The position numbers were made by a program, and so were the translations under genes. 64,000 nucleotides of DNA from Candidatus Omnitrophota bacterium (GTDB lineage: Bacteria > Omnitrophota > Gorgyraeia > VGKH01 > JBHPFN01). Below are positions 3,947 through 56,562 of this stretch, in pieces. The DNA is taken from contig JBHPFN010000002.1 in assembly GCA_042571725.1 (NCBI GenBank), forward strand, positions 14,030 through 78,029, read 5' to 3'. The notes under the pieces were generated by a model. The model saw nothing but the letters and a program-made list of their open reading frames with translations. It had not been told where the DNA came from and made no database searches. The first letter of the stretch is position 1. Every line of letters starts with the position of its first letter.

Positions 3947-6262
3947 ATGAAAAGCCACGGAAAAGCAGCAATGATAGGAGGTGTAGTTGTGCTTCTTGTC
4001 ACGGTCTGCGGCATACTGTTTGCCCAGAGCGCTGATTGGCCAACGTTTCGTAAAGACGCCCAAAGAAATGGCGTTGACGACGGCATCAGCCCTTTTGAAT
4101 TTCCACTTGGGAAAAGATGGAGTCAATTTGTTGATCCGGAAGAAAACGTCAATATTGAGGCCTCTCCGGTCGTAGCGGATAATAAGGTATTTATTGGTAG
4201 CCTTGGTAATTTTGGCCCGAGCTATCCGGATCATCTCTACGTTCTTGATTTGGGAACCGGTGAAATTTTGAAAAGTTGGGGTTCTTCGGATAATGTAGGC
4301 ATGATTTGGGCCACACCAACCTATCACAACGGCAAGGTCTATGTGTTTGATTGGGGAGGCTATATCCACCGCTTAGATGTCAGCGACCCTGATCCGAACA
4401 ACTGGAGCAAGGATTGGGAGCTTCAGATCATTGAGAGCGCCGGAGATATCTCAATGGACTATTTTTGGGTCACCCGAGAAAGAACGTCTCCTTTGATTAT
4501 AGAAGATCCTGTTGACGGTGATAAACTTATCGTTCTAACGCAAGAAATAAAATACGATAGTTATTCTTATGAATTTCTGGAATCAATCGGAAAGATTTTT
4601 TGTGTTAATCCGGATAGTCCTTCAGAAAATATCTGGGGGCCGATTGATATCGGAGAAGTGCATTATTCTTCCCCGGCATATTCAGAGGATAAGTTGATTA
4701 TGACAGGCTATACAATGGTACCCGACGGAGGATATGGACAAGAAGTCGAAGGTACGGTGTATGCCCGGGATATCGCAACGGGAGAGATTATTTGGCAGAA
4801 TATGGTAGCTCCCAATGGAGCTATTGTCTCGACCCCTGCGATTCATAATGGCAAGGTCTATGTGGGCACAAGAGAGGGCTTTGACTCGAAGTTGCACCGT
4901 CTCGATTTAAACACAGGTAATCTTGACTGGTCCATTGCAATAGCTGATTTGCAAATAGAACTATATCCTGATTTAAACGAAATGTGGACATCGCCTACAG
5001 TTGCCTATGGAAAGGTTTATTTTGCATCCTATTCAACGCTTCATTGCGCTGTGGATGGGGATGTTCCATTACCTTGTCCTGGGTGGATACCGTTTAATCC
5101 TGGATTTTTGTTATTCAGCTCGCCCAGTATTTCCAACGGAGTCGTATATATTAGTACAGACGATTACTATTCTGTTGCAGATCCGCCTCGTGAGAATCAG
5201 GCATTGTTTGCGCTTGATGCAAATGATGGAACGGTTATCTGGCAATATCAGGATGCACTGCAACAATGGATTGGTTCAGCCCAGACATCACCGGCCCTGG
5301 CCGAGGGTGCGGTAGTGTTTGCCTCGTATGATGCGCCAGGCGCAAGCGGCGTGTACTGTTTTCAGTCAGGCACTGGTTGCGGGGACGGTGCCATCGGCGA
5401 CGGTGAAGTATGCGATGGCAATTCTCAAGCCTGTACCACTATAGATGGATACGAAGGAACGCAGGATTGCAACAGTGAGTGTTCAGGCTTTGATGAATGT
5501 ATCAGTGACTGGTATTGCGGTGATGGTTTTGTCAATGGTCCTGAGCTATGCGATGGCAATTCTCAAGCCTGTACAACCATCGATGGATACGCAGGTACAC
5601 AAAGTTGTAATGCCGCGTGTACTGGTTTTGACGCATGTACCAGCAACTTGTACTGCGGTGATGGTATAGTAAACGGCAATGAGATATGCGACACTGAAAC
5701 TCAAGCCTGTATAACCATAGATGGATATGAAGGTACGCAAGACTGCAACGGTCAATGTACCGGATTTGATGAATGTATAAGAATCTTCTACTGCGGTGAC
5801 GGATATTGTTCCGGAGCTACACAAGGAGAAGATTGCGCAACCTGTCCGCAGGACTGTTTAGGTGGCCAAGGAGGCATGTGCTCGGCCTGCTGGAAGGGCA
5901 GATGCGATGGTTATTGCAATGAAAGAAAAGAGACATCAGAATGCGCAGATTGCGCCGGGGATTACTGCTGCGGAGACGGAATCTGCAGTTTCGGAGAAGA
6001 TGTGTATAATTGTCAAATAGACTGCGGTTGTGTAAGTGATGCAGACTGCGGCGACGGACAGAGCTGTACCATGGATTTCTGTAATAATGGTATCTGCGAA
6101 AACATCTGGCCGGCGTGCGGATTTGCTGACGGATGTTGCGCATCTGATTGTACTCCGGCTACAGACCCTGACTGCCAAGATTGTAGCGCATGCTTTAAAG
6201 GAGTCTGCGACGGCGAATGTCATCCCAGAAAAGATGGCCCGGGTTGCCCGGATTGCGCATAA
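3947..6262 (+). CDS. Exported PQQ-like beta-propeller repeat protein with a long Cys-rich repeat tail
   Basis: AAGGAGG RBS and a signal-peptide-like N-terminus (GVVVLLVTVCGILFA|QS). Recurrent SP.V.....V.G.....Y..D..TG...W blades are typical of BamB/PQQ-like propellers. The C-terminal ~300 aa hold CGDG...E.CD..(N) Cys-rich repeats resembling the Myxococcus cysteine-rich repeat. Confidence 0.8.
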   Translation: MKSHGKAAMIGGVVVLLVTVCGILFAQSADWPTFRKDAQRNGVDDGISPFEFPLGKRWSQFVDPEENVNIEASPVVADNKVFIGSLGNFGPSYPDHLYVLDLGTGEILKSWGSSDNVGMIWATPTYHNGKVYVFDWGGYIHRLDVSDPDPNNWSKDWELQIIESAGDISMDYFWVTRERTSPLIIEDPVDGDKLIVLTQEIKYDSYSYEFLESIGKIFCVNPDSPSENIWGPIDIGEVHYSSPAYSEDKLIMTGYTMVPDGGYGQEVEGTVYARDIATGEIIWQNMVAPNGAIVSTPAIHNGKVYVGTREGFDSKLHRLDLNTGNLDWSIAIADLQIELYPDLNEMWTSPTVAYGKVYFASYSTLHCAVDGDVPLPCPGWIPFNPGFLLFSSPSISNGVVYISTDDYYSVADPPRENQALFALDANDGTVIWQYQDALQQWIGSAQTSPALAEGAVVFASYDAPGASGVYCFQSGTGCGDGAIGDGEVCDGNSQACTTIDGYEGTQDCNSECSGFDECISDWYCGDGFVNGPELCDGNSQACTTIDGYAGTQSCNAACTGFDACTSNLYCGDGIVNGNEICDTETQACITIDGYEGTQDCNGQCTGFDECIRIFYCGDGYCSGATQGEDCATCPQDCLGGQGGMCSACWKGRCDGYCNERKETSECADCAGDYCCGDGICSFGEDVYNCQIDCGCVSDADCGDGQSCTMDFCNNGICENIWPACGFADGCCASDCTPATDPDCQDCSACFKGVCDGECHPRKDGPGCPDCA
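5378..5791 (+). repeat. Three tandem 138-nt (46-codon) in-frame repeats encoding CGDG-x5-E-x-CD...ACTTIDGY-GTQ-CN..C.GFD.C
   Basis: The TGC of each CGDG starts at 5378, 5516, 5654 and 5792, an exact 138-nt period. Long identical DNA stretches are shared, e.g. tgcgatggcaattctcaagcctgtac at about 5411 and 5549. Confidence 0.9.
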
Positions 6263-6281
6263 ATAGATGAAGCATTGAATG

Positions 6282-6314
6282 TGCGTTCCCGTGGCGTTTC
6301 GCCACGGGAACGCA
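6282..6314 (+). terminator. Perfect 15-bp stem / 3-nt loop hairpin downstream of the propeller gene (terminator-like, no T-tract)
   Basis: tgcgttcccgtggcg-ttt-cgccacgggaacgca, read directly. It starts 20 nt after the stop at 6262. The missing U-tract lowers confidence that it is an intrinsic terminator. Confidence 0.5.
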
Positions 6315-6409
6315 TAGAAGTGGAAAGGGTGAAAAAGGGGAAGCGACACCCAAATGTTCAATAGAGTGGGTGTTGAATTTCGTCTAATGCAAAGGAGGAC
6401 AAAATTCTA

Positions 6410-6778
6410 ATGGAGAAGAAAAGATTAGTTAGCAAAATGTCATTAGTTAGTGCGTTTATAATAGTGATACTGTTCGCACAAAATATATTTGCCGAACCGT
6501 TACCTTTTCCTATACCTAAACCAAAGGTGTCTATCAACGAAGCAATAGACCTTGCGTCAGAATATTTTTATAAAATTGAATCTTTCCCAGATGATGATTT
6601 TTTTAAAAAGAAAGATTTCATTCTTACTTTAGCAAGATACACGCACTATTATGATGATGATTTTCATAGTGAAGGGGCATGGTTTATAGCTTTTGTACAT
6701 CCAGTTGGAACTGATATTACTTATACATATAAAATTAGTAATGATAAAAAAGTAGTCCTTGTTGAACATACAGTATAA
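6410..6778 (+). CDS. Small exported hypothetical protein
   Basis: AAGGAGG RBS and a signal-peptide-like N-terminus (MEKKRLVSKMSLVSAFIIVILFAQNIFA|EP). No recognisable family. Confidence 0.7.
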   Translation: MEKKRLVSKMSLVSAFIIVILFAQNIFAEPLPFPIPKPKVSINEAIDLASEYFYKIESFPDDDFFKKKDFILTLARYTHYYDDDFHSEGAWFIAFVHPVGTDITYTYKISNDKKVVLVEHTV

Positions 6779-6966
6779 AATATATCTTTTCTCCCGCCCC
6801 AAAGTGAAGCGACAATTTATGAACGAAGGGGGAGTGAAACCCCGAACAACGTGAGGGGTAAAGCCTGCCTGCACTCATCGTGCTAGATAGTGAGTGCTGC
6901 ACCTACGAGTGAAAGCAATATGGGTGCTGCCGGCAGGCAGGGAGCAGCTTAAGTAAGGAGAAAGTA

Positions 6967-7440
6967 ATGGGGAAAGTCTATAAGTATTATAATCAACAGG
7001 AAGCATTGAAGATTGAAGCCAGTCTTAAATCTGAAAATATTCCTGTTGAAATCCATTCTTTTGAGAATTGGGGATACGATGGAGTATTTAGACATGAAGT
7101 TGGGATGGGCGAAGTTATAGTCCCTGATGAATACGAAAAAAGGGCTAAAGCTATTATAAGCGAAGTCTTAAAAGAATTTAAGCATACTGCTGAAGATATG
7201 GAATTCAAAATAATTAAACTTAGGCAATCGAGCAAGAGCGTGAATGGATTTCTTGTCTCTGCGGTTATTTCTATTCTTATTGGGTTATCAGTAACAGGGT
7301 ATTCTGTTTTTATTTCTGCTGGTGAGGGTATTATATTTCTTATGGGTTGTCTTATTATTTTTGTTGGTATTGCAATGATTTTTAATTGGAAGAAAGCACT
7401 AAAAGACCGCGAGAAATTGAAGCGGCTTAGCGAGAAGTAA
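6967..7440 (+). CDS. Hypothetical membrane protein; small N-terminal alpha/beta domain (possibly DUF2007-like) plus two C-terminal TM helices
   Basis: AAGGAG RBS. The N-terminal 70 aa are soluble and two hydrophobic helices follow (FLVSAVISILIGLSV, IIFLMGCLIIFVGIAMIF). The family call is weak. Confidence 0.6.
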   Translation: MGKVYKYYNQQEALKIEASLKSENIPVEIHSFENWGYDGVFRHEVGMGEVIVPDEYEKRAKAIISEVLKEFKHTAEDMEFKIIKLRQSSKSVNGFLVSAVISILIGLSVTGYSVFISAGEGIIFLMGCLIIFVGIAMIFNWKKALKDREKLKRLSEK

Positions 7441-7527
7441 ATAAAGGAGCAGTTCAGTCCCCGCCCTTGATTCATTTGGCGGGGCAGTCCCGAACGAAGT
7501 GAGGGATAAATAAGGAGGTAATTAGTG

Positions 7528-7782
7528 ATGGGATTAGAAAAATTAACAGAAATGGAAAGAAAAGAAATTGAGTATTTTAGGAAATCAATTAAAAATTCTG
7601 TTATTGCTGGAGTTATTATGCTTGTTGTAGGTTTTGTCTTACACACGACGGCTATATTGACGAAAAACGCACAGCTGTCAATCGGTACTCCCGTATTAAT
7701 GATTATGGGAACCGTGTTTGCAGTTAGGGCGATGGAAAGCAATAAGTGGATAAAAATTATTGATATACTAACAAAGAATTGA
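7528..7782 (+). CDS. Small two-TM hypothetical membrane protein
   Basis: AAGGAGG lies 9 nt upstream of the ATG at 7528 (the track starts at the GTG at 7525). Two hydrophobic segments. Confidence 0.6.
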   Translation: MGLEKLTEMERKEIEYFRKSIKNSVIAGVIMLVVGFVLHTTAILTKNAQLSIGTPVLMIMGTVFAVRAMESNKWIKIIDILTKN

Positions 7783-7811
7783 TTTTCAGCAATAGTCATA
7801 GAGGAGGCAGG

Positions 7812-9506
7812 ATGTTAAAGCAAATTAGAAATATAATGATTCTTATGGTTGTCGTAATGCAGTTTAGTATTCTTTGTTGTGCCCAAAAGGACACAGCTAT
7901 AAGCGCAGAGAAGATTATGCAAAAAAGGCCCCGCGAAGATGGGCACTGCTTTGATTTTACACAAGTTGTGCCGAAAAATATTGTTAAGAGGATAAATGGC
8001 ATGTGGGGAAGGGCCTTTGAGAGTTCCGACATTGATTTTGTAATGCTGATTATTCCTTCGTTAGACAATAATTCCATTACAGAATACGCAGCAGAGTTAT
8101 TTACCAAGTGGGAAATCGGCAAAAGCACACAAGGTAAAAAAGGCATTCTTATACTTATTGCGATGCAGGAACAGAAGATCAAGATTGAGATTGGATATGA
8201 TTTGGAAGAGGTATACACCGATATGTATGTCGGACAGGTCGAGCGGGATATGCTCAAGGAGTTCTTAGAACAGGCTGATTGGGAAAGAGGTTTTTTTGGG
8301 ACGATTGAACATTTTATTGGAAGAATCTATTTAGCGGAAAAGAAAGGCATCATTGTTGATGAGATTGCTGCCGAGGACGATCAACTTAGGTATTATTCAC
8401 AAGGGGCAGGTGCAAAAAATGTATTTGATTTTGGCGCGGCTTTAAATAAGCCGATTCCAAAGGTTCCGGCGGAATTGCGCGCGTATTTTGGCGCTCAGCC
8501 CACCCCTGAGCTGGCGTTTCAACGTTACATGGAGAAAAATACAAAACTTATAGCTGATCATACACTTGATCTTTACACTGAAAGCTCGAAGGTGTTTTAT
8601 AGCAACTGGCGCACAAGCTCCGGTCAAATGCGCGGGGAAGCAGAATGGTTTGACGGAATTCCCTATGTGGTAAAACAGAAAGGAAAGTATGCGGTAGTTT
8701 TGTTTCCTTGCAATGGTGATGTTTGGGAATTCATGATGCACAACCCTTACTTTTTCTATCGAAGTGAAAAGGGCTGGCAGATTGATATTAACACTATGTC
8801 CCGATCGCTGATAATGGGTGCCCGTGGTGCCGATTGGCATTTCATGAGCAGGCTGCATCCGTATATGTTTGCTTTTGATGATTATGTTCTAACGAGGGAA
8901 CTTTATCTCCCTGATGAGGGCCAAAAGGCATTTTTGGGTTTGGGGTATAAGAGGAATATCAACAAACAGTATAATGCCTTTGAAATCTTTCCTGCCTACG
9001 AAGGACCCGCGAAGAAAGCAGGTGTTGAAAGCGGAGATATCTTACTTTCAATTGATGGTGAAAAGATTACAAAGCAGTTTCAAGACTGGGAGATGATGAA
9101 GCGCTATAACCCCGGGGATGTGGTAGTTGTGGAAGTTCTTCGCAATGGTAAGGGAAAAAACATAAAAGTACGATTGGACGAGGTACCTAAAAAGAAATAT
9201 CCTGAGGTAAAAAAAACGGGCGACGCCTGGTTTGGTTTTTATAGAGGATACTCGCAGCCGTATGAAAGAAAGATAACTGGACCCAGAACCACTGATTCTG
9301 TTCTTTATGTTGTTAAGGGAAGCCCTGCAGAGAAAGCGGGATTAAAGGAAAGGGACGTTATTTTTGATAAGGACAGCGATTTTATGTATGATGAAACTAT
9401 AAAGCCTGGCGATAAAGTCACCTTCGAGGTCCTGCGCGATCTGAAGAAACGCATAAAGATTACTATCACCGCCGGAAGCTATTCACCTGGGAAAGAGGGG
9501 ATTTAA
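7812..9506 (+). CDS. TPM-domain protein with the same middle domain as 2220-3893 and two C-terminal PDZ domains
   Basis: GGAGG RBS before the ATG at 7812, with a lipoprotein-like N-terminus (FSILCCAQ). TPM signature: ITEYAAELFTKWEIGKSTQGKKGILILIAMQEQKIKIEIGYDLEE. PDZ motifs: GPAKKAGVESGDILLSIDG and GSPAEKAGLKERDVI. Confidence 0.8.
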   Translation: MLKQIRNIMILMVVVMQFSILCCAQKDTAISAEKIMQKRPREDGHCFDFTQVVPKNIVKRINGMWGRAFESSDIDFVMLIIPSLDNNSITEYAAELFTKWEIGKSTQGKKGILILIAMQEQKIKIEIGYDLEEVYTDMYVGQVERDMLKEFLEQADWERGFFGTIEHFIGRIYLAEKKGIIVDEIAAEDDQLRYYSQGAGAKNVFDFGAALNKPIPKVPAELRAYFGAQPTPELAFQRYMEKNTKLIADHTLDLYTESSKVFYSNWRTSSGQMRGEAEWFDGIPYVVKQKGKYAVVLFPCNGDVWEFMMHNPYFFYRSEKGWQIDINTMSRSLIMGARGADWHFMSRLHPYMFAFDDYVLTRELYLPDEGQKAFLGLGYKRNINKQYNAFEIFPAYEGPAKKAGVESGDILLSIDGEKITKQFQDWEMMKRYNPGDVVVVEVLRNGKGKNIKVRLDEVPKKKYPEVKKTGDAWFGFYRGYSQPYERKITGPRTTDSVLYVVKGSPAEKAGLKERDVIFDKDSDFMYDETIKPGDKVTFEVLRDLKKRIKITITAGSYSPGKEGI

Positions 9507-9508
9507 TC

Positions 9509-11221
9509 ATGTGTTCCAAAAACAATAAAAGGGTTATAAAATTCGCAATTATAATCTTAGGGATTTATATAATGTTACCTCAGCAAGCTTATGCTTCAGG
9601 ATATCATCCGCCGTTTGATCAGGCTGTTAAAGAGGCTGAGCTGATTGTGTTAGGAGACGTTATCGAGGCCTGGGATCCGAAAGCAAAACAGGATTCGGAA
9701 AGGTTTGATTTTTCTGAGGGGAGAGCGTATCGCATGCGCGTCGAGAAGGTGTACAAGGGCGACGTAAAAGCAGGAGATGAAATAATCTTTTGGGATGCCC
9801 ATTATATGAGTACGGCAAGCTACCATGTCAGTGAGGGCAATAAAAATTTAACCTTCCTTGTTCCAGCCGAATTGTCGGAATTTGAAAAAAGGCATTTTCA
9901 ATTTGGAACTCCCGAACTTTATCGTCCCATCACAAACTGTAATCAGGAATATGATTTTGATATTGGAGAGTATCAAGGGTATCTTTATCTTCTGGATCTG
10001 ACGCTCATGAATCCCCCTGAAGATCTGCGTCCAACATATACTAAGATCTTAAGGGAAGAGAATAATCGATATGTTCTCAGGTATGTCTTTGAGCATTGGC
10101 CTGCAGAATTGACTCAGGAGGATATTCTGCTCTTTCGAGAAACCTTTAATAAACACTATCAAGACGCCTATGTCACGAATCCGGCCATTGAACGGCTTGC
10201 CCTTCAGGGAGAATTTTTCGATGATACAAACTTAAGACAGCTTCTTAAGGAAGGAAGTTCTTACCAGAGAATGGAACTTTTGGCAATGGTAGATGCTAAG
10301 AATATTAAATCAGTTGAAGATATTCTTTTTGATTGGATCATGGAAGAAGAAAGAAATCTTGGTGAGCAAGAGAGCATTGAGATTCTTGCCGATCTTTCTC
10401 CGGAGTATTTAAGAAAGCAGCTCAGCAACCGAAAAATACCTTTTTGGAAATTAATCCCTTGCCTGCAGGCGCTCGAGATTAACGGAAGCGATGTTGGAAA
10501 GGAAGATTTTAGTCCGGAAATCCTTGCGTTAGATCCATATACGATCAGCAATATCGGTGAGGTCTATAGCGGAAAGGATTTCCATGGAATTTGCGCCATG
10601 GATTATATTCAGGAGTTAGAGTCTGATTTCGATGTGATCTGGGGATATTCTAGAGAGCGCGAGAAATGGAAGACGGCACTTCCTTTATTTGAGCCACTTT
10701 TGAAAAAACCTGACAGCCCCATACGAAGATTAGTAGTTGCATTAATGAGGACATATGGCCTTACTGTAGTAAGAGAAGGGGATGGTTATGTTGTTGACCG
10801 TAGCAAAACATCAGCTTCTCCACCTGTTAGGCTAGAAATTGAAGCACCGAAAGAACCTTTTCAACTCGGCGATTCTTTAAAACAATTGAGAGTAAAAGAA
10901 ACTGCAATAGCGGATGGAGCGTGGTTTTCTTTCAATGGCAGTTTGAGTTGGGCAGTTCGGGAAGATGATGGAGGCACTGCTGGTGGCGGTGGTACATTCG
11001 GCATTTTCGAGAACGTTGATATTCCAAAAGATAAATTTGTTCAACTAGAAGAAGGACAGACATTCTATTCTTCAGATTCTCTCGGATGGAGTATGAGTCG
11101 GCCGGGAAGATATTATGCATCGGTTTCTAAAGTGTATCCGCACGACGGAGCAAGCGTAGGCCTCGATGCCTGGACAGGAACCGTATTTTCCAACACAGTA
11201 GAAATAGAAGTGGTGGAATGA
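9509..11221 (+). CDS. Large exported hypothetical protein
   Basis: 570-aa intact ORF starting 2 nt after the upstream stop. Signal-peptide-like N-terminus (FAIIILGIYIMLPQQAYA|SG). No family recognised. Confidence 0.7.
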   Translation: MCSKNNKRVIKFAIIILGIYIMLPQQAYASGYHPPFDQAVKEAELIVLGDVIEAWDPKAKQDSERFDFSEGRAYRMRVEKVYKGDVKAGDEIIFWDAHYMSTASYHVSEGNKNLTFLVPAELSEFEKRHFQFGTPELYRPITNCNQEYDFDIGEYQGYLYLLDLTLMNPPEDLRPTYTKILREENNRYVLRYVFEHWPAELTQEDILLFRETFNKHYQDAYVTNPAIERLALQGEFFDDTNLRQLLKEGSSYQRMELLAMVDAKNIKSVEDILFDWIMEEERNLGEQESIEILADLSPEYLRKQLSNRKIPFWKLIPCLQALEINGSDVGKEDFSPEILALDPYTISNIGEVYSGKDFHGICAMDYIQELESDFDVIWGYSREREKWKTALPLFEPLLKKPDSPIRRLVVALMRTYGLTVVREGDGYVVDRSKTSASPPVRLEIEAPKEPFQLGDSLKQLRVKETAIADGAWFSFNGSLSWAVREDDGGTAGGGGTFGIFENVDIPKDKFVQLEEGQTFYSSDSLGWSMSRPGRYYASVSKVYPHDGASVGLDAWTGTVFSNTVEIEVVE

Positions 11222-11329
11222 CAGTCGCTCGCACGCAGGCTTTATTAAACAGTATTGACAAAGCTATTGAAATATTCGGAGGGAAGATTTGATGTCAATC
11301 CTCTATAAAAATAAGATAAAGGGGGAGTG

Positions 11330-11562
11330 ACACCCAAATGTTCAATAGAATGGGTGTTGAATTTCTGCACCCAGCGCGTTAACTACACCCAGCGTGCTAA
11401 ATAGGAGGTCTTGTACTCACTGATATAAAATAGCTGAGTGCTATAGGGTGCTGCACCCACTAATGTAAGAAATCTGGGTGCTAGCTAATGCAAAGGAGGG
11501 TAGCACTCAGCTTGTTTAGCACTAGTGAGTGTAGCACCCTCCCAGATTAAAACAGGGGGTGC
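11330..11562 (+). repeat. Array of about 6 tandem hairpin modules (GCACYCA / 12-16 nt loop / TGRGTGC) in the leader of 11572-12075
   Basis: Read directly, e.g. acaccca-aatgttcaatagaa-tgggtgt and gcaccca-ctaatgtaagaaatc-tgggtgc. One further unit, gcaccc-tcccagattaaaaca-ggggtgc, lacks the WTGTAR loop motif but is counted among the ~6 units of this array. Confidence 0.8.
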
Positions 11563-11571
11563 AAAATTCTA

Positions 11572-12075
11572 ATGGAGAAGAGAAAGTTACTTAGGGTGAC
11601 AAAATTCATATTTCTATTTCTTATTTTTATTGCGTCCAGCGCGTATGCTCAAACTACACCCGAGGAACTAGCTGCCCATTTAGCAGAAGCTATTAAAACA
11701 AACGATATTGAGGCTTTTGAAGCTCTGGTTCATCCACAAAGCTTGGAGTATTTAAAAGAGCATGACTTGGAGCAATTTAATAGAATTATAAAATATGGCC
11801 TTCTTGGACAAACCATAGAAAAAGATTATGAGATTAAAGTTTCTGACACAGCTGAGGAGAAGGAATATAATCTTCAACTCAACAGGTTGGAAATTAGAGA
11901 TAAATTTTTTATCTTTCCAGTTAAACCAAAGTATTATTTAAAAATTAGAAGTGTAACTAGGGATGAAGCTTTAAAGCTTACTAGTAAACATACTGTCGCT
12001 CGCTATTATATCGGCGAAGAGGAAGGAAGATGGTATATAATCTTAACAACGGAATCAGGCACTTTAGAGGAGTAA
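11572..12075 (+). CDS. Small exported hypothetical protein
   Basis: Signal-peptide-like N-terminus (MEKRKLLRVTKFIFLFLIFIASSAYA|QT). It shares the aaaattcTAATGGAGAAGA start context with the gene at 6410. Confidence 0.7.
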   Translation: MEKRKLLRVTKFIFLFLIFIASSAYAQTTPEELAAHLAEAIKTNDIEAFEALVHPQSLEYLKEHDLEQFNRIIKYGLLGQTIEKDYEIKVSDTAEEKEYNLQLNRLEIRDKFFIFPVKPKYYLKIRSVTRDEALKLTSKHTVARYYIGEEEGRWYIILTTESGTLEE

Positions 12076-12103
12076 TATTTTGGGCGTCTTTAAACGAGAC
12101 AAT

Positions 12104-12265
12104 ACACCCAGCAATGTAAGCGAGCACTCAGCGTGTAGGATAGGGAGTGTTGCGCCCAGGATGTAAATTAGGGGGCACTAAGCGTTGCTCCGCCGAAGGC
12201 GGGGCTACACACAGCATTGTAAAACGAGGGTGTGTTGCACTCACTAATGTAAAATACCTGAGTGC
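12104..12265 (+). repeat. Array of about 6 hairpin modules, including one CCGCC-GAA-GGCGG module, in the leader of 12278-12763
   Basis: Read directly: gcactca-ctaatgtaaaatacc-tgagtgc, gcgccca-ggatgtaaatta-gggggc, acacaca-gcattgtaaaacga-gggtgtgt, ctccgcc-gaa-ggcgggg. Confidence 0.8.
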
Positions 12266-12277
12266 TAAGGAGGCGTG

Positions 12278-12763
12278 ATGGAGATTAAAATAATGAAGAA
12301 AAGGGATAAAGATTTTTGGATTAGTAAGCATAAAGAAAGAAAAAATATTGCACTTGGATTTCTTTTTAAAGATGAACACATAGCTTTTGAATTATCTTAT
12401 AAGCAATGGAACTTATTTTTAAGGCTTATTAAGCTAACTAAAAGCAAAAAAAATCTTCCTAAAGGTGAGGATGCATTTCAAGGTATTAATTTGGATACAG
12501 GTAAATTGATGTATTTCAGTTTGAAAGTGCAACAGCTTATTCTCAAAACAATTATGAAAGAAAGTAAGGGTAGAATACCTCAAAATAAAGCAAGCGTTTG
12601 GAACAAAAGATATGTGAAAGATATTAAGAATAATTTTATGGCTAAGGAAATGCACATAGTAAAAAATGATGTTGTGTTGACCATATCAAGAAAGAAATTC
12701 CGAAGACTTTGCGAATACTGCCTAAACCAAAAAAACTTTATTATTATATCAGAGATATATTGA
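12278..12763 (+). CDS. Lys-rich hypothetical protein with no signal peptide
   Basis: TAAGGAGG RBS before GTGATG (ATG at 12278). Intact ORF, no family recognised. Confidence 0.6.
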   Translation: MEIKIMKKRDKDFWISKHKERKNIALGFLFKDEHIAFELSYKQWNLFLRLIKLTKSKKNLPKGEDAFQGINLDTGKLMYFSLKVQQLILKTIMKESKGRIPQNKASVWNKRYVKDIKNNFMAKEMHIVKNDVVLTISRKKFRRLCEYCLNQKNFIIISEIY

Positions 12764-12950
12764 ATTTACCTCACCCACCCCAAAGTAAAGCCTGCCTGCC
12801 GCCTGCCTGTCGGCAGACAGGGCAGGCAGGGAGCAGTTCAGCGCCCATGAGCTTAAAGAATAGTGGGTGCAGCACGGAGCGGAGCGAGGTGACACCCAGC
12901 ATGGAAAAAATAGCGGGTGTTACGTTCAGAATGAAAGCGAGGGAACGTTA

Positions 12951-13361
12951 ATGGAGAAGAAATTGCGATATTACATTTTAAATCTTTTTGTCATTGCTTT
13001 ATTTTTTTCAAGTCTGGTTTATGCGGCTACTCCTCAAACAATATGCGCAGTAATCTTTGGCATTACTATTGGAGAGAAGGGAGAATTGTTGGATGTTAGA
13101 ATAAGCAAGGTTATTGATGCATCTTCCGGCTCGACTGATGCAATAGAAGTTGAGATCCCTGATACGTATTTTGCGAATGCAAAAGCAAAGATTGAAAACC
13201 ATGGATACGAACCTGCATTGGAAAACGGAAGACCCAAAGAGTTCTTTACCTACTTTTATTATGATGCTAATCGGCCGGATGTAGTCATAGATGATACAAA
13301 GCTAATAGAATCTAAAGTCGTCCCGATTCGAGGCAGCAATTTGAAAAAGGAAGAGAGATGA
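12951..13361 (+). CDS. Small exported hypothetical protein (weak TonB-C-like pattern)
   Basis: I prefer the internal ATG at 12951 (MEKKLRYYILNLFVIALFFSSLVYA|AT). The 5' extension in the track runs through the repeat mosaic. The TAATG stop/start context is as at 6410 and 11572. Confidence 0.65.
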   Translation: MEKKLRYYILNLFVIALFFSSLVYAATPQTICAVIFGITIGEKGELLDVRISKVIDASSGSTDAIEVEIPDTYFANAKAKIENHGYEPALENGRPKEFFTYFYYDANRPDVVIDDTKLIESKVVPIRGSNLKKEER

Positions 13362-14023
13362 AGCTAAAATATATTTTAATTTTTTTAACCATCGCTTTTA
13401 TTGTAAACACTGTGCTTTGTTTTTTCGTTCTTCCCGGGATAATGCCTGATTACTATAGGGCAGATTATGATTTTCCAGAAGATGATATTCGAAAAAGCAT
13501 TTCGGGGATTTTCTTTCCTGTCAAAGAAGCAAAGCTATATGAAGCTTCTGATGTATCTTTGGTTCAACCCATTGGAATATTGACTGAGCCAGTTACCTTT
13601 TCTGGTGACAGACATCAAGTAAATGACGTTCTGATGAGGATTGTTTTGGATGAAAAACACGATGCCTATGTATCCCGTTCCGATTTGCGATATTTACCAT
13701 CTGGTGACAAAACTAGTTCCCAATCAATAGACTTGGTCCTTAAAAACAGGCTTCCCGATGGAAAGTATTATTCTGAAGAAGCTAGGTGGAGCGCTAGATC
13801 CATTGAAGAGGGTATCTCAAGAGTAACCGTTGTGTATGATGATTTTACTGATTATACTTATAAATTTATCTATGATACTGACGGAGAAAAGATTTGGTCA
13901 GTCAAAAAGAGGGGTCCCTGGAGTTTTATAGAATACATATGGTTTTTGTATTTAATTATAACTAATGGGGGAATTGTTGTGTTGGCGGGTGTAGCAATTC
14001 ACTCTAGAAAGAAGTTCAAGTAA
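13358..14023 (+). CDS. Hypothetical membrane protein (N- and C-terminal TM helices)
   Basis: ATGA overlap with the upstream gene. Hydrophobic N-terminus and C-terminal WFLYLIITNGGIVVLAGVAI. Confidence 0.65.
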   Translation: MKLKYILIFLTIAFIVNTVLCFFVLPGIMPDYYRADYDFPEDDIRKSISGIFFPVKEAKLYEASDVSLVQPIGILTEPVTFSGDRHQVNDVLMRIVLDEKHDAYVSRSDLRYLPSGDKTSSQSIDLVLKNRLPDGKYYSEEARWSARSIEEGISRVTVVYDDFTDYTYKFIYDTDGEKIWSVKKRGPWSFIEYIWFLYLIITNGGIVVLAGVAIHSRKKFK

Positions 14024-14087
14024 AGCGCAATTTCAGAAGGAGAAACTTAATGTTTAACGTACGTAAAAATAAAGCTAAGGAGGAACA

Positions 14088-14285
14088 ATGGAATTCTTGG
14101 AATTGTTAGCAGGCTGGGCTAATTTTCTTTTCCCGTTGTTGCTGGTTGGTTTTCTTCTCTACTATATCGTATTTATAAGAAGAAAGCGCGAAAAAAGGTA
14201 TTATGAGGTGGTAGAACGAAGCCTCGCCCAGGGAAAAGAACAGGTAGAGGTTTTGAGAGAAATCAGAGATTTGCTTAAGAAATGA
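14088..14285 (+). CDS. 65-aa single-TM hypothetical protein
   Basis: AAGGAGG RBS 6 nt upstream. One TM helix followed by a charged tail. Confidence 0.55.
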   Translation: MEFLELLAGWANFLFPLLLVGFLLYYIVFIRRKREKRYYEVVERSLAQGKEQVEVLREIRDLLKK

Positions 14286-14340
14286 TCTTGCCCGCCTTAA
14301 AGTGAGGGCTTAGCCCGTTTCGCTTACGTGTTACGGGCTA

Positions 14341-14506
14341 GCACCGAGCGAAGCGAGGTGAGCAATGTAAAGAAGGGGGTGTGGAAATGACACCCATAAT
14401 GTATACGACGGGGTGCTGCACTCATATTGTCAGGTAGTAGTAAGTGCTGTGCTCCCTATTGTAAAATATAGGAGCGCTGTACCAAAAATGTAAACTAGGG
14501 GGTACT
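14341..14506 (+). repeat. Array of hairpin modules (1 GAGCGAAGCGA-loop module and about 4 GCACYCA-type modules) abutting the GTG start at 14507
   Basis: Read directly: caccgagcgaagcgaggtg; acaccca-taatgtatacgac-ggggtg; gcactca-tattgtcaggtagtag-taagtgc; gctcc-ctattgtaaaatat-aggagc; gtacc-aaaaatgtaaactag-ggggtac. Confidence 0.75.
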
Positions 14507-15382
14507 GTGAGAAAACTATTACTCGTTTTAGCGTTTTGTTTATTAGCTACTTCTGTGTTTGCTCAAACATCAGTTATTTCTGGCAGGGTTGAGCTTCCAG
14601 AGGTCGATAAAGAAGGGAATCTATTTATAAAGTTTTCACCTGCAGGTCAGTTTCTTTCCGCCCCTGAAAGCGAGCGCTATTTTACCGTGATAAAGAAAGA
14701 AGATATCACATCACACAAAGTACCATACAAAATCGAGGTTGTTCCTCCAGGTAAATATTGGGGGTTTTGCACCTGGGATATTGCTGAATTTTTCTGGGAG
14801 CCATCATGGGGAGAAGGCAATTGTCCTGCGTATGAAGGAGATTATACTGGAGGCACTCAAGAGTTGATTGTTATTCAAGAAGGAGAAACCTTAGAAAATA
14901 TTGATTTTGAGTGCAAGAATTATCTTGGACAGACTGAGAAAAGCGGTTATCAGGCTGCGTACAAAATCCTCGATATCCGATACGAGAAAAACACTGAGAA
15001 CAATGAGCCCAAGATTCTTGTTAGGATTAAAAACATTGATACAAAACCTATCGGCGAGATATGGATGGGTTGTTTTATCAATGGCGAAGAAACGTTTGAT
15101 TTCAGCGTTTTTGATCTCGAGGATTTACTAGAGCCAGGGGAGCAAAGAGAATTTGATATGACGTATTGCTACACCGATACGTATCTTTCGCATCGCTTTG
15201 ACGAAGAGACGCTGAGGCTGAAAGATGCCGGCCCCTCTGTGTATGAATTGGATATTAAATTGGTCTCCAACGACAACGATGAGGTTTTTGAAAAACACAT
15301 TACCGTAACCGATGTTAAGCCAAGGATGATAAAAGAAGTTCTTGAGAGCGGTATGAATTATTACGAAATTATTTGGGAGTAA
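14507..15382 (+). CDS. Exported hypothetical protein
   Basis: GTG start, signal peptide MRKLLLVLAFCLLATSVFA|QT, 291-aa intact ORF. Confidence 0.7.
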   Translation: MRKLLLVLAFCLLATSVFAQTSVISGRVELPEVDKEGNLFIKFSPAGQFLSAPESERYFTVIKKEDITSHKVPYKIEVVPPGKYWGFCTWDIAEFFWEPSWGEGNCPAYEGDYTGGTQELIVIQEGETLENIDFECKNYLGQTEKSGYQAAYKILDIRYEKNTENNEPKILVRIKNIDTKPIGEIWMGCFINGEETFDFSVFDLEDLLEPGEQREFDMTYCYTDTYLSHRFDEETLRLKDAGPSVYELDIKLVSNDNDEVFEKHITVTDVKPRMIKEVLESGMNYYEIIWE

Positions 15383-15492
15383 ATATCGACAATTCCAACA
15401 GCAATATAAGCGACACCCAGGATGTAAAATAGAGGGTGTTGCCCCGCCAAAACCTGCCTGACGGCAGTCAGGGGCGGGGCTAAGGAAAAGAG

Positions 15493-15924
15493 ATGAAAAA
15501 TAGACTGTTTTTATCAATAATGATAATCTTATTAATGCCTGGCTTTGCGCTTTCGGATGTTATCGTTGAAATTCCAATACAATCAGAAAATAAAGAGGAA
15601 ATTGGATTTGACTTTCATATATCAAGTTATACGTATGAATCTACTGTCGGGCTAACCATTTCCTTTCAACCAACTGAAAAATTGAAGACGCTTTCAGAAA
15701 TTAGAGTTGAAGCGAGAAGATTTAATCAATTACTCTTTAACATTCCTTTAAAGATAGAAAAGGAAGAGGATGGATCGTTAGTGGGTGAATTTTCTGTCAG
15801 GAGAAACCTATTAGAGGAGACTAAGATTATTTTGATATGCGGTGACCCACTTTATCAATATTCAATTAGTCTTAAAAGCCAAGTAACACCCGCCTTCTCT
15901 GAAGTAAAGGAGCGCCTAGAATGA
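15493..15924 (+). CDS. Small exported hypothetical protein
   Basis: Preceded by CCCCGCC...GGCGGGG-CTAAGGAAAAGAG-ATG. Signal-peptide-like N-terminus. Confidence 0.65.
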   Translation: MKNRLFLSIMIILLMPGFALSDVIVEIPIQSENKEEIGFDFHISSYTYESTVGLTISFQPTEKLKTLSEIRVEARRFNQLLFNIPLKIEKEEDGSLVGEFSVRRNLLEETKIILICGDPLYQYSISLKSQVTPAFSEVKERLE

Positions 15925-18176: not shown

Positions 18177-18391
18177 GTTCTATAATCCCCCCCGAAGGCA
18201 GCGAGCATTGCGGAATTTCAGGGACACGCACTTTTTTAGTATTTGTACCCTTCGGGCTGCACTGCGGGTGCTGCACCCATATCTTTACGAACGAATGAGT
18301 GCTGCCCGCGTACCAACTATGCCAATAAACGCTAAAGACAAAAGTAAGCTTTTCAATCATTGAGGATTGTGCAAAAAAAGGAGCAAAATAG

Positions 18392-18823: not shown

Positions 18824-18866
18824 AGGAGAAATTCTTTTAGGACAATGGGCACTAAGGAGTAATGAG

Positions 18867-19868
18867 ATGAAGAAACTATTTTTATTAATTCTCTTTATGG
18901 CAATGCTTTGCAATGTTGTCGTAGCTCAAGAAGAAGAAAGGAAATCACCCGCCTCCGGAAAAGAGGTCGCAGAATCTCTTGCGGAAATGCACAAAAAATT
19001 TATGCCCACCGAAGAAGAATTCCGAGAACTGCAGAAGGAAACCGATTGCCCGGATTGCGTTCCTTTTGATATCACAAAAATGGGTGGCGATGATGTTGAT
19101 ACATGGGATTATTCCCAGCTTACGATTGAGCACGCTTTTATGGCTGATAACGGCGATTATTATGTAACGTTTAAGTTTGTTCGGGATATGCCTTTAAGAT
19201 TAAAGAATATTTACGGATTCTGGATCAGTGAAAGAGTCATCTATCCGATTCAAGCTCGGGGAGGATCAATAGCAAGCAATAAGATTCGTGCAACTCTCAG
19301 TGATGCAGAAAGAAAGGAACACATCGGAGACCTCGCGTTGAATCAAGGGATATTAACAATTACATGTGCAGGACAAGCGCAAAATCTAGAGAAGGTATCG
19401 GCGCTGGGAAAAGAAGAGTTAATCCAAAAGATTATAAGTAAAGAGATCAGGCCTATTAATCTATCTAACGTAAGGATGCCGCAAGGTCTTTTTAAGATCT
19501 GGGGAACGGATGCCTATATTTATTATGATACTACGAGGTTTCGCCAGGGATATCAAAATCGGTTTTTTATGGGAGCAGGACATGCCTTAAACGAATACGA
19601 AATTGAGAATTTTTATTATTTCAAGGACGGAGGCACTACTATAATCGAAGTAAAAGATAAGGGTACATTATATATTCCACAGAGGATGTTTCCCGGAGAA
19701 ACCAAAAAACCATATTGGCAGCCGGTGGGTTCAGATGAAAAACAAGATATTGAAGAGCTAAAGCTTGAAAATAGCGTGTTGGAAGGCGTGGGTATTGATG
19801 TTGGAGAATTTGAAATTCCAAGATTAAAAAATCCTTGCGATGTTTTCACAAACCGAATCGGATCATAA
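18867..19868 (+). CDS. Exported hypothetical protein
   Basis: AAGGAG RBS, signal peptide MKKLFLLILFMAMLCNVVVA|QE, 333-aa intact ORF. Confidence 0.7.
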   Translation: MKKLFLLILFMAMLCNVVVAQEEERKSPASGKEVAESLAEMHKKFMPTEEEFRELQKETDCPDCVPFDITKMGGDDVDTWDYSQLTIEHAFMADNGDYYVTFKFVRDMPLRLKNIYGFWISERVIYPIQARGGSIASNKIRATLSDAERKEHIGDLALNQGILTITCAGQAQNLEKVSALGKEELIQKIISKEIRPINLSNVRMPQGLFKIWGTDAYIYYDTTRFRQGYQNRFFMGAGHALNEYEIENFYYFKDGGTTIIEVKDKGTLYIPQRMFPGETKKPYWQPVGSDEKQDIEELKLENSVLEGVGIDVGEFEIPRLKNPCDVFTNRIGS

Positions 19869-20304: not shown

Positions 20305-20480
20305 GAGGAATTCCGGCCCGCAGATTTTTATAATAGGGCGGACTGGAATTTCGCTCGGGGCAATCGAACACCCAGCGTGCAAATTAGAGAGTGCTGCGCA
20401 CTAGAGGCTTACGCCGGTGCGCTAGGTCGAAATTCCGGGGACACGCACCCCAAGAGATTAAAAACGCAAAAGGAGATATA

Positions 20481-21068
20481 ATGAAGAAGGTATTATTTAT
20501 TTTTTTGAGCGTGGCAATAGTTGGGTGTATTGTGTTGTGTTCGATGTCCGAGCTTGCAGCACAATATTCCGCTGAAGATTACAAAAAGAGGATCGAGTAT
20601 TTAAGTAAACATCCTGAGAAGGCCAGAAAGTATACCCCAGAGTCTTTAGATGCAAGTGTGGAGCCACCCGACGAACCTTCGGATGAAAGAGCGCAACCAC
20701 CAGAAGAGCCCTTAGATGAAAGCATAGAACCATCAGAAATTTCTGGTGTCCCTTGCGCAGAACGGGCAGATCATTTAGAAAAGTGTGAGCCTTATATGTG
20801 CCAGAAAGAAGATGATATGTCTCCTGGGAATATGATTACCCAAACCATTGAAGGTTTTGCCGGAGAGATGTGCGTATATAGGTTGGTAAGTACGAGTGGT
20901 CGTGAGATGGTATGCAAATTGTCTGATGATCAAAGGGCTAAGTTTGCAAAATCTATGGGAGGCAAAGAAGTTTCTGCGTATTCAGATCTGTTCGGAGCTT
21001 TTACGGAGGCACTTGAAACAGGAGAATGCGTTATTTATGAAAACGGCGAAGTCGTTCCTATTGAGTGA
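20481..21068 (+). CDS. Exported Cys-containing hypothetical protein, paralog of 21864-22433
   Basis: I prefer the ATG at 20481 after AAAGGAG. Shares (S)xEDYKKRIEYLSKHPE.A.KY.PES and a conserved Cys pattern with the downstream paralog. Confidence 0.7.
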   Translation: MKKVLFIFLSVAIVGCIVLCSMSELAAQYSAEDYKKRIEYLSKHPEKARKYTPESLDASVEPPDEPSDERAQPPEEPLDESIEPSEISGVPCAERADHLEKCEPYMCQKEDDMSPGNMITQTIEGFAGEMCVYRLVSTSGREMVCKLSDDQRAKFAKSMGGKEVSAYSDLFGAFTEALETGECVIYENGEVVPIE

Positions 21069-21863: not shown

Positions 21864-22433
21864 ATGAGGAAATTGTCCGTTGTTTTATTGTCTCTGGCAT
21901 GGGTTGGGTGTATTGTGCTCTGTGTCATTTCAGACCTCGCGGCACAATCTTCCGTCGAGGATTATAAAAAGAGGATCGAGTATTTAAGCAAACATCCTGA
22001 AAGAGCCAAAAAGTATATCCCAGAGTCTTCGGTTGAAAGCGTGGAGTCACCAGACAAACCTCTGGAAGAAAGCACGCAGCCGCCGGCAATTACCGATGAT
22101 CCTTGCGCAGAATTGCCAGATTATTTGGAACAGTGCAAGCCTTACACGTGCCAGAAGAAAAATTCTAATACTTCCTTAGGGGAGATGATCACATTTACAG
22201 TTGAAGGGTTTACCGAACAGGCGTGTGGGTATAGAATGGCGGGTTCGACGGGCTTTGAAATAGCATGTAGCTTGTCAGACGATACAAGGGCTAACATTGC
22301 AAAAGCGATACGAAACCAAAGCCTTGCGGGGTTATACGATCATATCGGAATTTTAATGAGTGCATCTGAGGCAGGAGAGTGTGTTCACTATGAAGACGGA
22401 AAAGTAGTTCCTTATGAGCAAGGAGAATTATGA
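21864..22433 (+). CDS. Exported Cys-containing hypothetical protein, paralog of 20481-21068
   Basis: AGGAGAAGAG RBS region. A stretch of about 75 nt of close DNA similarity links 21958-22030 with 20573-20645. Confidence 0.7.
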   Translation: MRKLSVVLLSLAWVGCIVLCVISDLAAQSSVEDYKKRIEYLSKHPERAKKYIPESSVESVESPDKPLEESTQPPAITDDPCAELPDYLEQCKPYTCQKKNSNTSLGEMITFTVEGFTEQACGYRMAGSTGFEIACSLSDDTRANIAKAIRNQSLAGLYDHIGILMSASEAGECVHYEDGKVVPYEQGEL

Positions 22434-56529: not shown

Positions 56530-56562
56530 CGTAATCACGCTCCTTTGTAGCAGCAAGGCCTG

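Follow-up and report, generated by a model that had tools for sequence, protein, structure and literature searches.

The stretch of DNA analysed here (the window) comprises 64,000 nucleotides of contig JBHPFN010000002.1 (forward strand, positions 14,030 to 78,029) from a metagenome-assembled genome of Candidatus Omnitrophota bacterium, a member of an uncultured phylum, and the element in question is a structured leader that lies upstream of three small secreted-protein genes and extends into their first codons. From position 88 to 51,364 of the window every gene is on the + strand and the GC skew is positive; as every gene is on +, this is probably the leading strand. A run of small genes, most of which have signal-peptide-like N-termini and no Pfam match, extends from ~6.3 to 28 kb; the leader is set in this block, which spans 22 kb, has a single direction and consists of small, mostly orphan genes with signal peptides. 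The 570-aa protein encoded at 9509–11221 is ACFL1E_00875, on a contig of 87,282 nt. Two of the leaders precede the genes of ACFL1E_00880 (167 aa) and ACFL1E_00890 (136 aa), whose annotated start codons agree with those used here. The three copies of the leader (L1, L2 and L3) and the junctions at which two of them meet their genes are listed below; bit scores come from two covariance models, R1, which was built from 19 hairpins chosen by eye, and R2, a model of the whole leader.

6331–6431, + strand: leader L1 of gene 6410–6778 (122 aa), aligned with 11315–11594 and reaching into codon 8; R2 score 100 bits.
11315–11594, + strand: leader L2 of gene 11572–12075, an expanded copy; folding energy −97.3 kcal/mol, z −5.3.
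12892–12964, + strand: leader L3 of gene 12951–13361; R2 score 81 bits.
6408–6421, + strand: TAATGGAGAAGAAA junction, at which the stop of a short open reading frame (ORF) overlaps the start of the 122-aa gene.
12949–12962, + strand: TAATGGAGAAGAAA junction of L3.

A first-pass annotation of this DNA had proposed that the leaders at 6335–6425 and 11320–11590 share their 5′ and 3′ parts, and this is borne out by three blocks that are 92–100% identical. Over 51 nt, positions 6331–6381 of L1 match 11315–11365 of L2 at 92% identity. Both leaders also contain CTAATGCAAAGGAGG without a difference, at 6384 and 11485, and likewise CAAAATTCTAATGGAGAAGA, at 6400 and 11562, where similarity reaches codon 8 (88% over 33 nt). 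A 37-nt hairpin block has two matches, versus 0.00 in shuffles. The sequence TAATGGAGAAGA occurs exactly at 6408, 11570 and 12949 only and, with one mismatch allowed, four times against 0.53 expected. Gene 12951 had been noted as a third case with a TAATG start junction, and here the homology spans the whole leader, beyond the start alone: the hairpin arms recur in L3, together with a second helix that shows compensation and with the block AATG(C)AAAG(C)GAGG. While UAAUGGAGAAGA is exact in all three leaders, L3 is otherwise 57% identical. The order of parts is a hairpin (P1), a 6-bp helix (P2) with the ribosome-binding block in its loop, and then UAAUGGAG. No inverted copies of the leader were found in the window.

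The genes behind the leaders had been called unrelated, which is only partly demonstrated. The coding DNA of genes 6410 and 11572 cannot be aligned beyond codon 8, and protein 12951 matches neither of the other two; however, the C-terminal parts of proteins 6410 and 11572 match each other weakly (34% over 50 aa, pairwise E-value 7e-4). Protein 11572 is an ORFan, Pfam searches with both 6410 and 11572 at E-values up to 10 gave nothing useful, and their single-sequence AlphaFold models were poor (pLDDT 48 and 56, respectively). Homologues of protein 12951 elsewhere (49–51% identity) begin MKRIML.. or MMKKVLF.. rather than MEKK, and the one homologue contig examined (L028) has no leader-like DNA upstream, which indicates that leader and gene body do not move together.

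The helices of the three leaders are as follows.

6346–6373, + strand: P1 of L1, arms ACACCCA (6346–6352) and TGGGTGT (6367–6373), with an ATG in the loop at 6354; R1 score 26.5 bits; seen in the minimum free energy (MFE) and centroid folds.
6375–6407, + strand: P2 of L1, arms GAATTT (6375–6380) and AAATTC (6402–6407), its loop holding CTAATGCAAAGGAGG (6384–6398) with the Shine–Dalgarno sequence AGGAGG (6393–6398).
11330–11357, + strand: P1 of L2, 97% identical to P1 of L1.
11359–11569, + strand: P2 of L2 with an expanded loop, arms GAATTT (11359–11364) and AAATTC (11564–11569); the MFE fold closes the whole insert.
12892–12897 and 12915–12920, + strand: P1 arms of L3, followed by P2 arms ACGTTC (12922–12927) and GAACGT (12943–12948) and Shine–Dalgarno sequence GAGGG (12939–12943).

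P2 directly follows P1 and ends directly before UAAUGG. Its pairs are GAAUUU/AAAUUC in L1 and L2 and ACGUUC/GAACGU in L3. Compensation is in register at three of them and, once a single G is shifted, is seen at a fourth too; no cell is left unpaired, compared with 31–49% pairing in slid controls. This pattern is suggestive of compensatory change that keeps P2 paired. No good ribosome-binding sequence is present other than the loop block AAUG(C)AAAG(C)GAGG, whose distance from the AUG is 11 nt in L1 and 7 nt in L3, and in L1 the Shine–Dalgarno sequence in the P2 loop has a predicted unpaired probability of 0.67.

Compared to L1, L2 carries extra DNA within P2.

11366–11484, + strand: extra segment 1, with half units at 11366–11383 and 11384–11411 and hairpin units at 11412–11442 and 11452–11482.
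11485–11499, + strand: conserved block CTAATGCAAAGGAGG, which here caps a long hairpin and lies 72 nt upstream of the AUG; unpaired probability 0.59.
11500–11561, + strand: extra segment 2, with a hairpin unit at 11502–11533 and CACCCTCC..GGGGGTG at 11534–11563.
11444–11483 and 11501–11540, no strand assigned: inverted pair flanking the conserved block, complementary over 21 nt (86%) plus 18 nt (89%) and paired in the MFE fold.

L2 is L1 with its P2 loop expanded on both sides of the conserved block, and the inner parts of the two extra segments pair together: the MFE fold joins 11445–11465 to 20 of the 21 nt of 11520–11540, and the conserved block stays in the apical loop. A second closing stem pairs TGCACCC (11366–11372) with GGGTGCA (11557–11563). 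In a hand alignment, the reverse complement of 11501–11540 is ~80% identical to 11444–11483, which exceeds the same-strand similarities of either unit, and 11501–11540 looks like an inverted copy of 11444–11483. The ~190 nt of additional sequence that had been reported for the 11-kb copy is thus present, but as ~180 nt in two pieces and not as one insert between two parts. Counted as internal units, L1 has none and L2 about five.

The hairpin units of L2 belong to a family of which P1 is an ordinary member. The family unit is a ~30-nt hairpin (28–32 nt) with a 7-bp stem, arms CACYCA/TGRGTG and a loop of 13–16 nt, usually NN(A/T)TGTAA..(A/T)TAG (the loop motif is given in its stem as CUAAUGUAAAAUACC); variant units have the arms ACACACA/GGTGTGT, GCTCC/GGAGC or GTACC/GGTAC. 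At least 22 units lie in spacers of the window between 6.3 and 28 kb, 21 of the 22 wholly within non-coding DNA. Those outside the leaders are listed here.

6870–6898 and 6899–6928, + strand: two hairpin units, nested in the GCCTGCCTGC..GGCAGGCAGG module at 6864–6941.
12123–12150, 12151–12179, 12206–12236 and 12237–12266, + strand: four hairpin units, with a GC hairpin (12187–12205) between them and a half unit at 12104–12124.
12840–12871, + strand: hairpin unit upstream of L3, found by R1.
14389–14416, 14417–14448, 14449–14477 and 14478–14506, + strand: four back-to-back hairpin units.
15412–15440, + strand: hairpin unit, followed by a GC hairpin (15441–15480) and CTAAGGA..ATG 15493.
18272–18303, + strand: hairpin unit of ambiguous loop orientation, found by R1.
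20367–20395, + strand: hairpin unit inside the GGAATTTCG..CGAAATTCC closing repeat at 20344–20437.
27159–27187, + strand: hairpin unit found by R1 outside its training set, with an exact 18-mer in common with 12134.
27945–27973, + strand: hairpin unit at the junction of genes 27269–27946 and 27943/27985–28398.

Among the 19 hairpins chosen by eye, 90.8% of stem cells are paired (25–56% with slid partners), and there are 17 double changes versus 6.0 in column shuffles. We also considered palindromic operator sites as an explanation of the arms; both arms change together, which fits pairing and not protein half-sites, and this candidate was rejected. At E<0.05, R1 detects 21 sites on the + strand of the window, including three outside the training set (27159, 27945 and 20367), while one training hairpin (14449–14477) scores at E 0.13. 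In 64.5 kb of the nearest relatives' loci used as a control, R1 gave one chance match, and in 122 kb of metagenome loci only seeds that had been chosen by the search pattern. Loop orientation is clearly + in 19 of the 22 units and ambiguous in three, one of them the unit at 11502. Some units reach the translation start itself: unit 12237–12266 abuts CTAAGGAGG and the start of gene 12278, and the 3′ arm of unit 14478–14506 provides the purine run directly before the GTG start at 14507.

R2 gives ~30 bits on 15412, on 12206 and on both halves of L2. The possibility that P2 is itself a diverged unit of the hairpin family was examined and rejected, as at 15412 and 12206 R2 (~31–32 bits) does no better than R1 alone (29 and 32); the likeness of these two sites to the leader beyond P1 is one of architecture only (hairpin, hairpin, CUAA(U)GGAG). 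The motif CTAATGYAA has seven matches in the window versus 1.6 expected, only four of which are in spacers.

Two sequence details of the units and their surroundings were seen in passing. In about half of the unit loops, as well as in the half units at 12104 and 25152, a start codon is followed by an immediate stop (ATGTAA, TTGTAA, ATGTAG or GTGTAG; for example at 11461–11466, 12162–12167, 12245–12250, 14487–14492, 15421–15426 and 27169–27174), and the three leader-type hairpins are without the stop. At 20344–20437 (+), GGAATTTCG..CGAAATTCC closes a 94-nt structured stretch; AATTYC(A/C)GGGGACACGCAC recurs at 18213 and 20429, in the stretches 18205–18235 and 20344–20437 (+), and their arm GAATTTCG equals the P2 5′ arm of L1 and L2.

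The same spacers hold further modules and a second family of leaders.

6842–6856, 7490–7504, 12875–12889 and 14344–14358, + strand: GA hairpin CC-GA-AC-AAC-GT-GA-GG, four on + and none on −.
12791–12830, + strand: unexpanded GCCTGCCTGC..GGCAGGCAGGGAGCAG module, of which 6864–6941 is an expanded copy.
15437–15507, + strand: family-B leader GTGTTGCC-hairpin-GGCGGGGCTAAGGA..ATGAAAAA, its loop 21 nt longer than that of 27232–27283.
25244–25300, with partial copies at 18850–18890 and 20455–20495, + strand: related family-B leaders, from the start-region comparison.

The GA hairpin has the general form CC-GA-RC-RRM-GY-GA-GG, its inner pair changing from AC/GT to GC/GC between copies. Also present are a GC hairpin (GYYCCGCC..GGCGGGGC), the GCCTGCCTGC..GGCAGGCAGGGAGCAG module and two short motifs, CCAAAGTRAAGC and GGAGCAGTTCAG. 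On the +/− strands the three asymmetric module types number 4/0, 3/0 and 3/0, all in the direction of the genes, and at least four module types are found in varying order in the spacers at 6779, 7441, 12076, 12764, 14286, 15383 and 27094. Nesting recurs outside the leader: the CCTGCC module has two hairpin units inside it at 6864–6941 and none at 12791–12830, and the loop of the GC hairpin is 21 nt longer at 15441–15480 than at 27236–27254. What is observed is a ~30-nt covarying hairpin that is combined with modules of at least three further types; their order and number vary, and they are nested in one another.

When all start regions (−45 to +24) were compared pairwise, L1 and L2 ranked top and the second leader family lay above 99.9% of the null. 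This family B consists of GTGTTGCC-hairpin-GGCGGGGCTAAGGAG..ATGAARAA (as RNA, hairpin-CUAAGGAG-AUGAARAA) ahead of genes 15493 and 27269 and the small ORF 25287, and partly ahead of 18867 and 20481; the proteins behind its leaders have no match to one another. The small ORF at 25287–25540 (+), too short for the list of ORFs of ≥100 aa, is membrane-protein-like (MRKPVKIIYEISCF..), and its family-B leader is made up of a GC hairpin (25248–25272) and CTAAGGGGAG. Start contexts are shared more widely, TAATGGRGAA being common to 6967, 6410, 11572 and 12951 and (T/G)GATGG(A/G)GA being found at 7528 and 12278.

Repeats make up nearly all of the spacers of the 22-kb block, in a window of which only 6.5% is non-coding. 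The spacers of this island have folding energies of −0.30 to −0.39 kcal/nt (z mostly −2.3 to −7), whereas those outside it in the same window fold at only −0.08 to −0.29 kcal/nt, and in most island spacers a stable hairpin ends 0–13 nt ahead of the ribosome-binding site. The fold of the L1 spacer is dominated by a hairpin that lacks a U tract:

6282–6314, + strand: perfect 15-bp GC-rich hairpin with a TTT loop, directly 3′ of the gene for a 771-aa PQQ-propeller/Cys-rich-repeat protein.

A promoter and terminator scan of the window did not rise above shuffles, which fits long co-transcription and is no proof of it. The sole gathering-level Rfam 15 match in the window is the c-di-GMP-I-GGC riboswitch at 30247, and an Rfam 15 search of 6200–15600 at E-values up to 5 yielded nothing credible. 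Regular spacing of the CRISPR type was not seen by TRF, and no tRNA or tmRNA was found in the window. Pfam scans of ~40 window proteins revealed no integrase or transposase, nor a RAYT gene (an IS200/IS605-like Y1 transposase).

Units are typically 62–81% identical to their nearest relative, with P1 of L1 and L2 as an outlier at 97%; from this difference we infer that the L1/L2 copy (~100 nt, eight codons included) was the latest event. Not one of the 22 units has its nearest relative in the same spacer, versus 1.9 expected at random, which argues that units were copied between spacers and not multiplied by recent slippage in place; judged by their sequences, they appear to behave as dispersed modular units. 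The proposal that hairpin modules are mobile within leaders gains from the differing number of units in homologous leaders and from the nesting at two further sites, and these three expanded/unexpanded pairs, together with the nearest-neighbour pattern, make it plausible.

A search for the leader elsewhere with a strict leader-hairpin pattern (GACACCCAN{6,11}AATAGN{1,3}GGGTGTT, covering the leader type only) gave chance matches alone in both public collections. In 185,579 species-representative genomes it returned only five singletons, the Omnitrophota one (L008) falling within coding sequence that resembles hisB; in the Joint Genome Institute (JGI) metagenome set it returned 14 singletons, none with neighbouring units. 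Looser patterns for the family would be expected to yield thousands of chance matches. The loci of relatives of the 570-aa island protein (42–51% identity; L001, L004, L005, L011, L026 and L027) contain no units, and a blastn search with the L2 leader found no match in plasmid and phage collections.

Taken together, these observations lead us to favour, with a probability of about 55%, an explanation in which the leader is a composite of lineage-specific small structured intergenic repeats that are copied between spacers and tune mRNA stability and access to the start codon. In such a scheme, units and composite leaders would be copied between spacers at the DNA level, whether by a single-strand transposase acting in trans, by template switching or by gene conversion. 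The spacers would be transcribed within long polycistronic mRNAs, and the hairpins by each ribosome-binding site would act as REP, BIME and BOX elements do, on segmental mRNA stability and on start-site accessibility, so that gain or loss of a unit could tune the expression of a single cistron. The start codon and the MEKK codons would belong to the copied unit, and because of this unrelated gene bodies would begin alike. This functional reading draws on position, structure and analogy.

Several points weigh against this explanation. Its basis is one 64-kb window, the closest relative of which is at 51% protein identity. The hairpins of the covariation test had been chosen by eye for pairing, which makes the test supportive and not independent, and the covariation of P2 represents two independent lineages, with 19 of 500 shuffles reaching its score. 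Stem mismatches are balanced (six G.U versus seven A.C) and both strands fold equally well, and for this reason there is no sign of selection at the RNA level over the DNA level. In L2 the conserved block lies 72 nt from the AUG and the start-proximal GGGGG is predicted to be paired (unpaired probability 0.10), so a ribosome-binding role cannot explain the conservation of the block there, although its recency can. With all genes on + and a positive GC skew, transcription, insertion specific to one replication strand or duplication in place could each lie behind the uniform orientation of the units. The window showed no transposase, and set against L1 the L2 boundaries (TTTC|TGCA..GCTAG|CTAA; GGAGG|GTAG..GGGTG|CAAAA) display no target-site duplication, though the arms TGCACCC and GGGTGCA could count as terminal inverted repeats.

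Much of the same evidence has been weighed for other explanations. The retention of P2 through compensatory changes, the AAUG(C)AAAG(C)GAGG block in the loop of all three leaders (the L2 hairpin tip included) and the exactness of UAAUGGAGAAGA in an otherwise diverged L3 are what would be expected of a dedicated cis-regulatory RNA, in which P1, P2 and the loop block bind one regulator of the three MEKK genes (a protein or small RNA, for example a CsrA-like binder of GGA loops) and the other hairpins are filler. We regard this as unlikely, as no Rfam family matches even at E-values up to 5, a single pattern scan in each of the two public collections did not turn up the leader hairpin, and there are only three copies, two of them recent; moreover, P1 is an ordinary member of the repeat family and the P2 loop opens with CUAAUG(C/U)AA, as do two loops of the family, which makes the leader look like a derivative of the repeats. 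A neutral history, in which 6410 and 11572 are recent paralogues or have undergone 5′ gene conversion and the arrays change by slippage or unequal exchange, with neither mobility in trans nor a role, is improbable to a similar degree. It would account for the weak C-terminal similarity of the two proteins (E 7e-4), for L1/L2 blocks at 92–100% identity when other pairs of units stand at 62–81%, as after one recent local event, for the uniform orientation that duplication in place gives and for the lack of a transposase in the window. The coding DNA of the two genes is nevertheless unalignable beyond codon 8, L3 and the family-B leaders precede proteins without detectable similarity, and no unit has its nearest relative in its own spacer, the opposite of recent slippage; in addition, double changes maintain the pairing of the stems and of P2, and in most island spacers hairpins end close to the ribosome-binding site (0–13 nt). 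We are more sceptical of a portable translation-start module (hairpin, site-displaying helix, AUG and charged MEKK) that a candidate hairpin-specific Omnitrophota enzyme places before unrelated or new ORFs. Under that scenario UAAUGGAG would be derived from the family's usual ribosome-binding site, CUAAGGAG, by one inserted U, and the tandem AAGTAAGGAGA/AAGTAATGGGGA at 6951–6977 hints at the same process; if it were true, orphan secreted proteins could be expressed inside a long operon. In that 12-nt tandem (+ strand), the ribosome-binding site and start context of gene 6967 look like duplicates.

The short ORFs of the leaders were the basis for a suggestion of translational coupling, and are placed as follows.

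6354–6410, + strand: short ORF MFNRVGVEFRLMQRRTKF, its ATG in the P1 loop; an inner ATG at 6387 gives MQRRTKF.
11338–11382, + strand: shortened counterpart MFNRMGVEFLHPAR, with its stop at 11380, ~190 nt before the main start.
12901–12951, + strand: short ORF MEKIAGVTFRMKARER; an inner ATG at 12931 gives MKARER.

As had been noted at first pass, the ORFs 6354–6410 and 12901–12951 end at the TAA of TAATG and the counterpart at 11338 opens MFNRMGVEF. Coupling, or a leader peptide, would mean that ribosomes starting in the P1 loop or at the inner ATG stop at UAAUG and restart on the main ORF. The loop-ATG ORFs of L1 and L3 (18 and 16 codons) and the nested MQRRTKF and MKARER all end at the TAA that overlaps the main ATG, and two length differences of 3 nt between L1 and L3 leave their frame intact, although this has a chance of ~1 in 3. 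The three leader-type hairpins are also without the direct TAA/TAG seen in many other units. Each loop ATG (6354, 11338 and 12901), however, belongs to the general loop motif of the family, most members of which have TAA or TAG directly after it, and the only purine-rich run upstream of it, which could speak for its use, is 10–12 nt away with the 5′ arm of the hairpin in between. The arrangement is not kept in the closest copy, L2, where the stop–start overlap is lost: its ORF stops as early as 11380, and the TAA at the main start can be reached in frame only from a GTG at 11525. The residues in common (GV and F) follow from the sequences of the P1 3′ arm and the P2 arm, and the main ORFs have purine-rich sites of their own at 7–11 nt. 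The suggestion of coupling was accordingly not sustained; we consider it very doubtful and regard the upstream ORFs as by-products of the repeat. Least probable of all is site-specific recombination of an integron- or shufflon-like kind, with the leader as a crossover site for swapping downstream cassettes. Many small orphan genes on one strand are indeed split by imperfect palindromes, identity does run a few codons into different genes, and the idea of a leader-plus-start unit retains the start shared by differing gene bodies, with the second leader family behaving likewise. Its recombination part finds no counterpart in the window: no tyrosine or serine recombinase was seen among the ~40 scanned proteins, the spacers are chains of local hairpins and not one bulged attC, with no RYYYAAC/GTTRRRY core pair seen, gene pairs abut or overlap without a spacer at 13358, 15921, 22430 and 23780, and the inverted leader copies that inversion needs are lacking.

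Returning to the composite of intergenic repeats, we compared it with known repeat systems. In BOX elements of Streptococcus pneumoniae (boxA–boxB(n)–boxC), conserved ends enclose a variable number of internal boxB units that fold independently, the elements are co-transcribed with neighbouring operons as 5′ or 3′ extensions, and boxC can provide the start codon of an ORF that runs out of the element (PMC3049150). L1 and L2 resemble this in architecture only, with conserved end modules, variable internal units and a start codon inside the shared unit. They differ in that BOX ends are terminal inverted repeats like those of an insertion sequence (IS), whereas no IS is seen in the window and no matching terminal repeat is known; BOX-borne ORFs are without good ribosome-binding sites, whereas the present leaders carry one; and the phylum is different, for which reason a sequence relation would not be expected. 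REP elements are small palindromic units with an unpaired GTAG or CGTC at one end and plausibly form stabilising or attenuating RNA hairpins (PMC3733652); within operons they are stabilisers and attenuators (bioRxiv 10.64898/2026.03.23.713779). The present units are likewise short (20–40 nt) palindromes, clustered in same-direction spacers in a mosaic with other short motifs and with similar effects likely at the RNA level, on stability and read-through, and the combination of palindromic units with other conserved short motifs is that of a BIME. The tag of REP is absent, with GTAG or CTAC within 10 nt of an arm in only 2 of 22 units and CGTC or GACG in none, and orientation is uniformly + instead of alternating as in BIMEs. 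Moreover, unlike in REP, BIME and REPIN, the 13–16-nt loop is as conserved as the stem, and units lie upstream of starts as often as downstream of stops. The inverted doublet 11444–11483 / 11501–11540 resembles a REPIN (PMC3116915). It is the only inverted pair, whereas in a REPIN system most units form inverted doublets that fold into one long hairpin.

The boundaries of L2 lack the target-site duplication that, along with terminal inverted repeats, defines MITEs, and a likeness to integron cassettes fails on the missing intI-like recombinase in the scans, on hairpin-chain spacers without core sites and on genes without spacers. The small dispersed repeats (SDRs) of heterocyst-forming cyanobacteria, as reportedly described by Elhai et al. 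in 2008, are ~20–30 nt long, located in spacers, nested in one another and without an encoded transposase, and their insertion is said to have been demonstrated by comparing related genomes; their sequences and phylum differ from those here. Near-identical upstream DNA and first codons before dissimilar secreted proteins are also known from the vlp/vsp genes of Mycoplasma and the upstream homology boxes of Borrelia. In these families conservation covers the entire signal peptide, the genes are plainly paralogous and there is often a recombination or phase-variation mechanism, whereas here identity stops after 4–8 codons and no switching mechanism is evident. In the library searched, no paper that combines Omnitrophota, intergenic and hairpin was found, and none on the non-coding DNA of the phylum. 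We place the family among the 'small structured interspersed intergenic repeats'; BOX and BIME are what it resembles most, and it lies outside any named family: a new family of a familiar kind, from one 64-kb window.

If repeats of this sort build the leaders of a block of orphan secreted-protein genes, this would explain how the block is expressed and how it could be re-tuned by gain or loss of 30-nt units, and would add a case of a repeat that carries the start codon of real-looking genes. It is also a warning for annotation, as short ORFs in spacers and some N-terminal extensions may be by-products of the repeat. If ORF 27943, for example, begins at its ATG, its first 10 residues would come from hairpin unit 27945–27973; the GTG at 27985, directly ahead of the signal peptide, offers an alternative start. 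In the same way, GTG 20391 and TTG 27245 were probably listed as starts too far upstream, the real ones being 20481 and 27269.

Other features of the window were recorded along the way. The c-di-GMP-I-GGC riboswitch aptamer (RF03167; 30247–30334, +; 61.5 bits, gathering score 59) lies in a 357-nt spacer upstream of genes 30435.. and 30874.., which show the N-terminal methylation motif known from type IV pilin-like proteins. The 771-aa PQQ-propeller protein has 138-nt periodic repeats (5409–5720, +) in its Cys-rich C-terminal part, with CGDG.. motifs. The secreted proteins encoded at 20481–21068 and 21864–22433 (+) are paralogues with 52% identity over 196 aa. Paralogues with a TPM domain are encoded at 2220 and 7812, and a pair of LemA genes lies at 452 and 1526. 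Four paralogous genes of ~830–855 aa on the − strand (51382, 54007, 57347 and 60532; region 51382–63892) share many exact 14–20-mers. Each of these four lies near a partner gene of ~270 aa or ~220 aa, and the one examined had no Pfam match.

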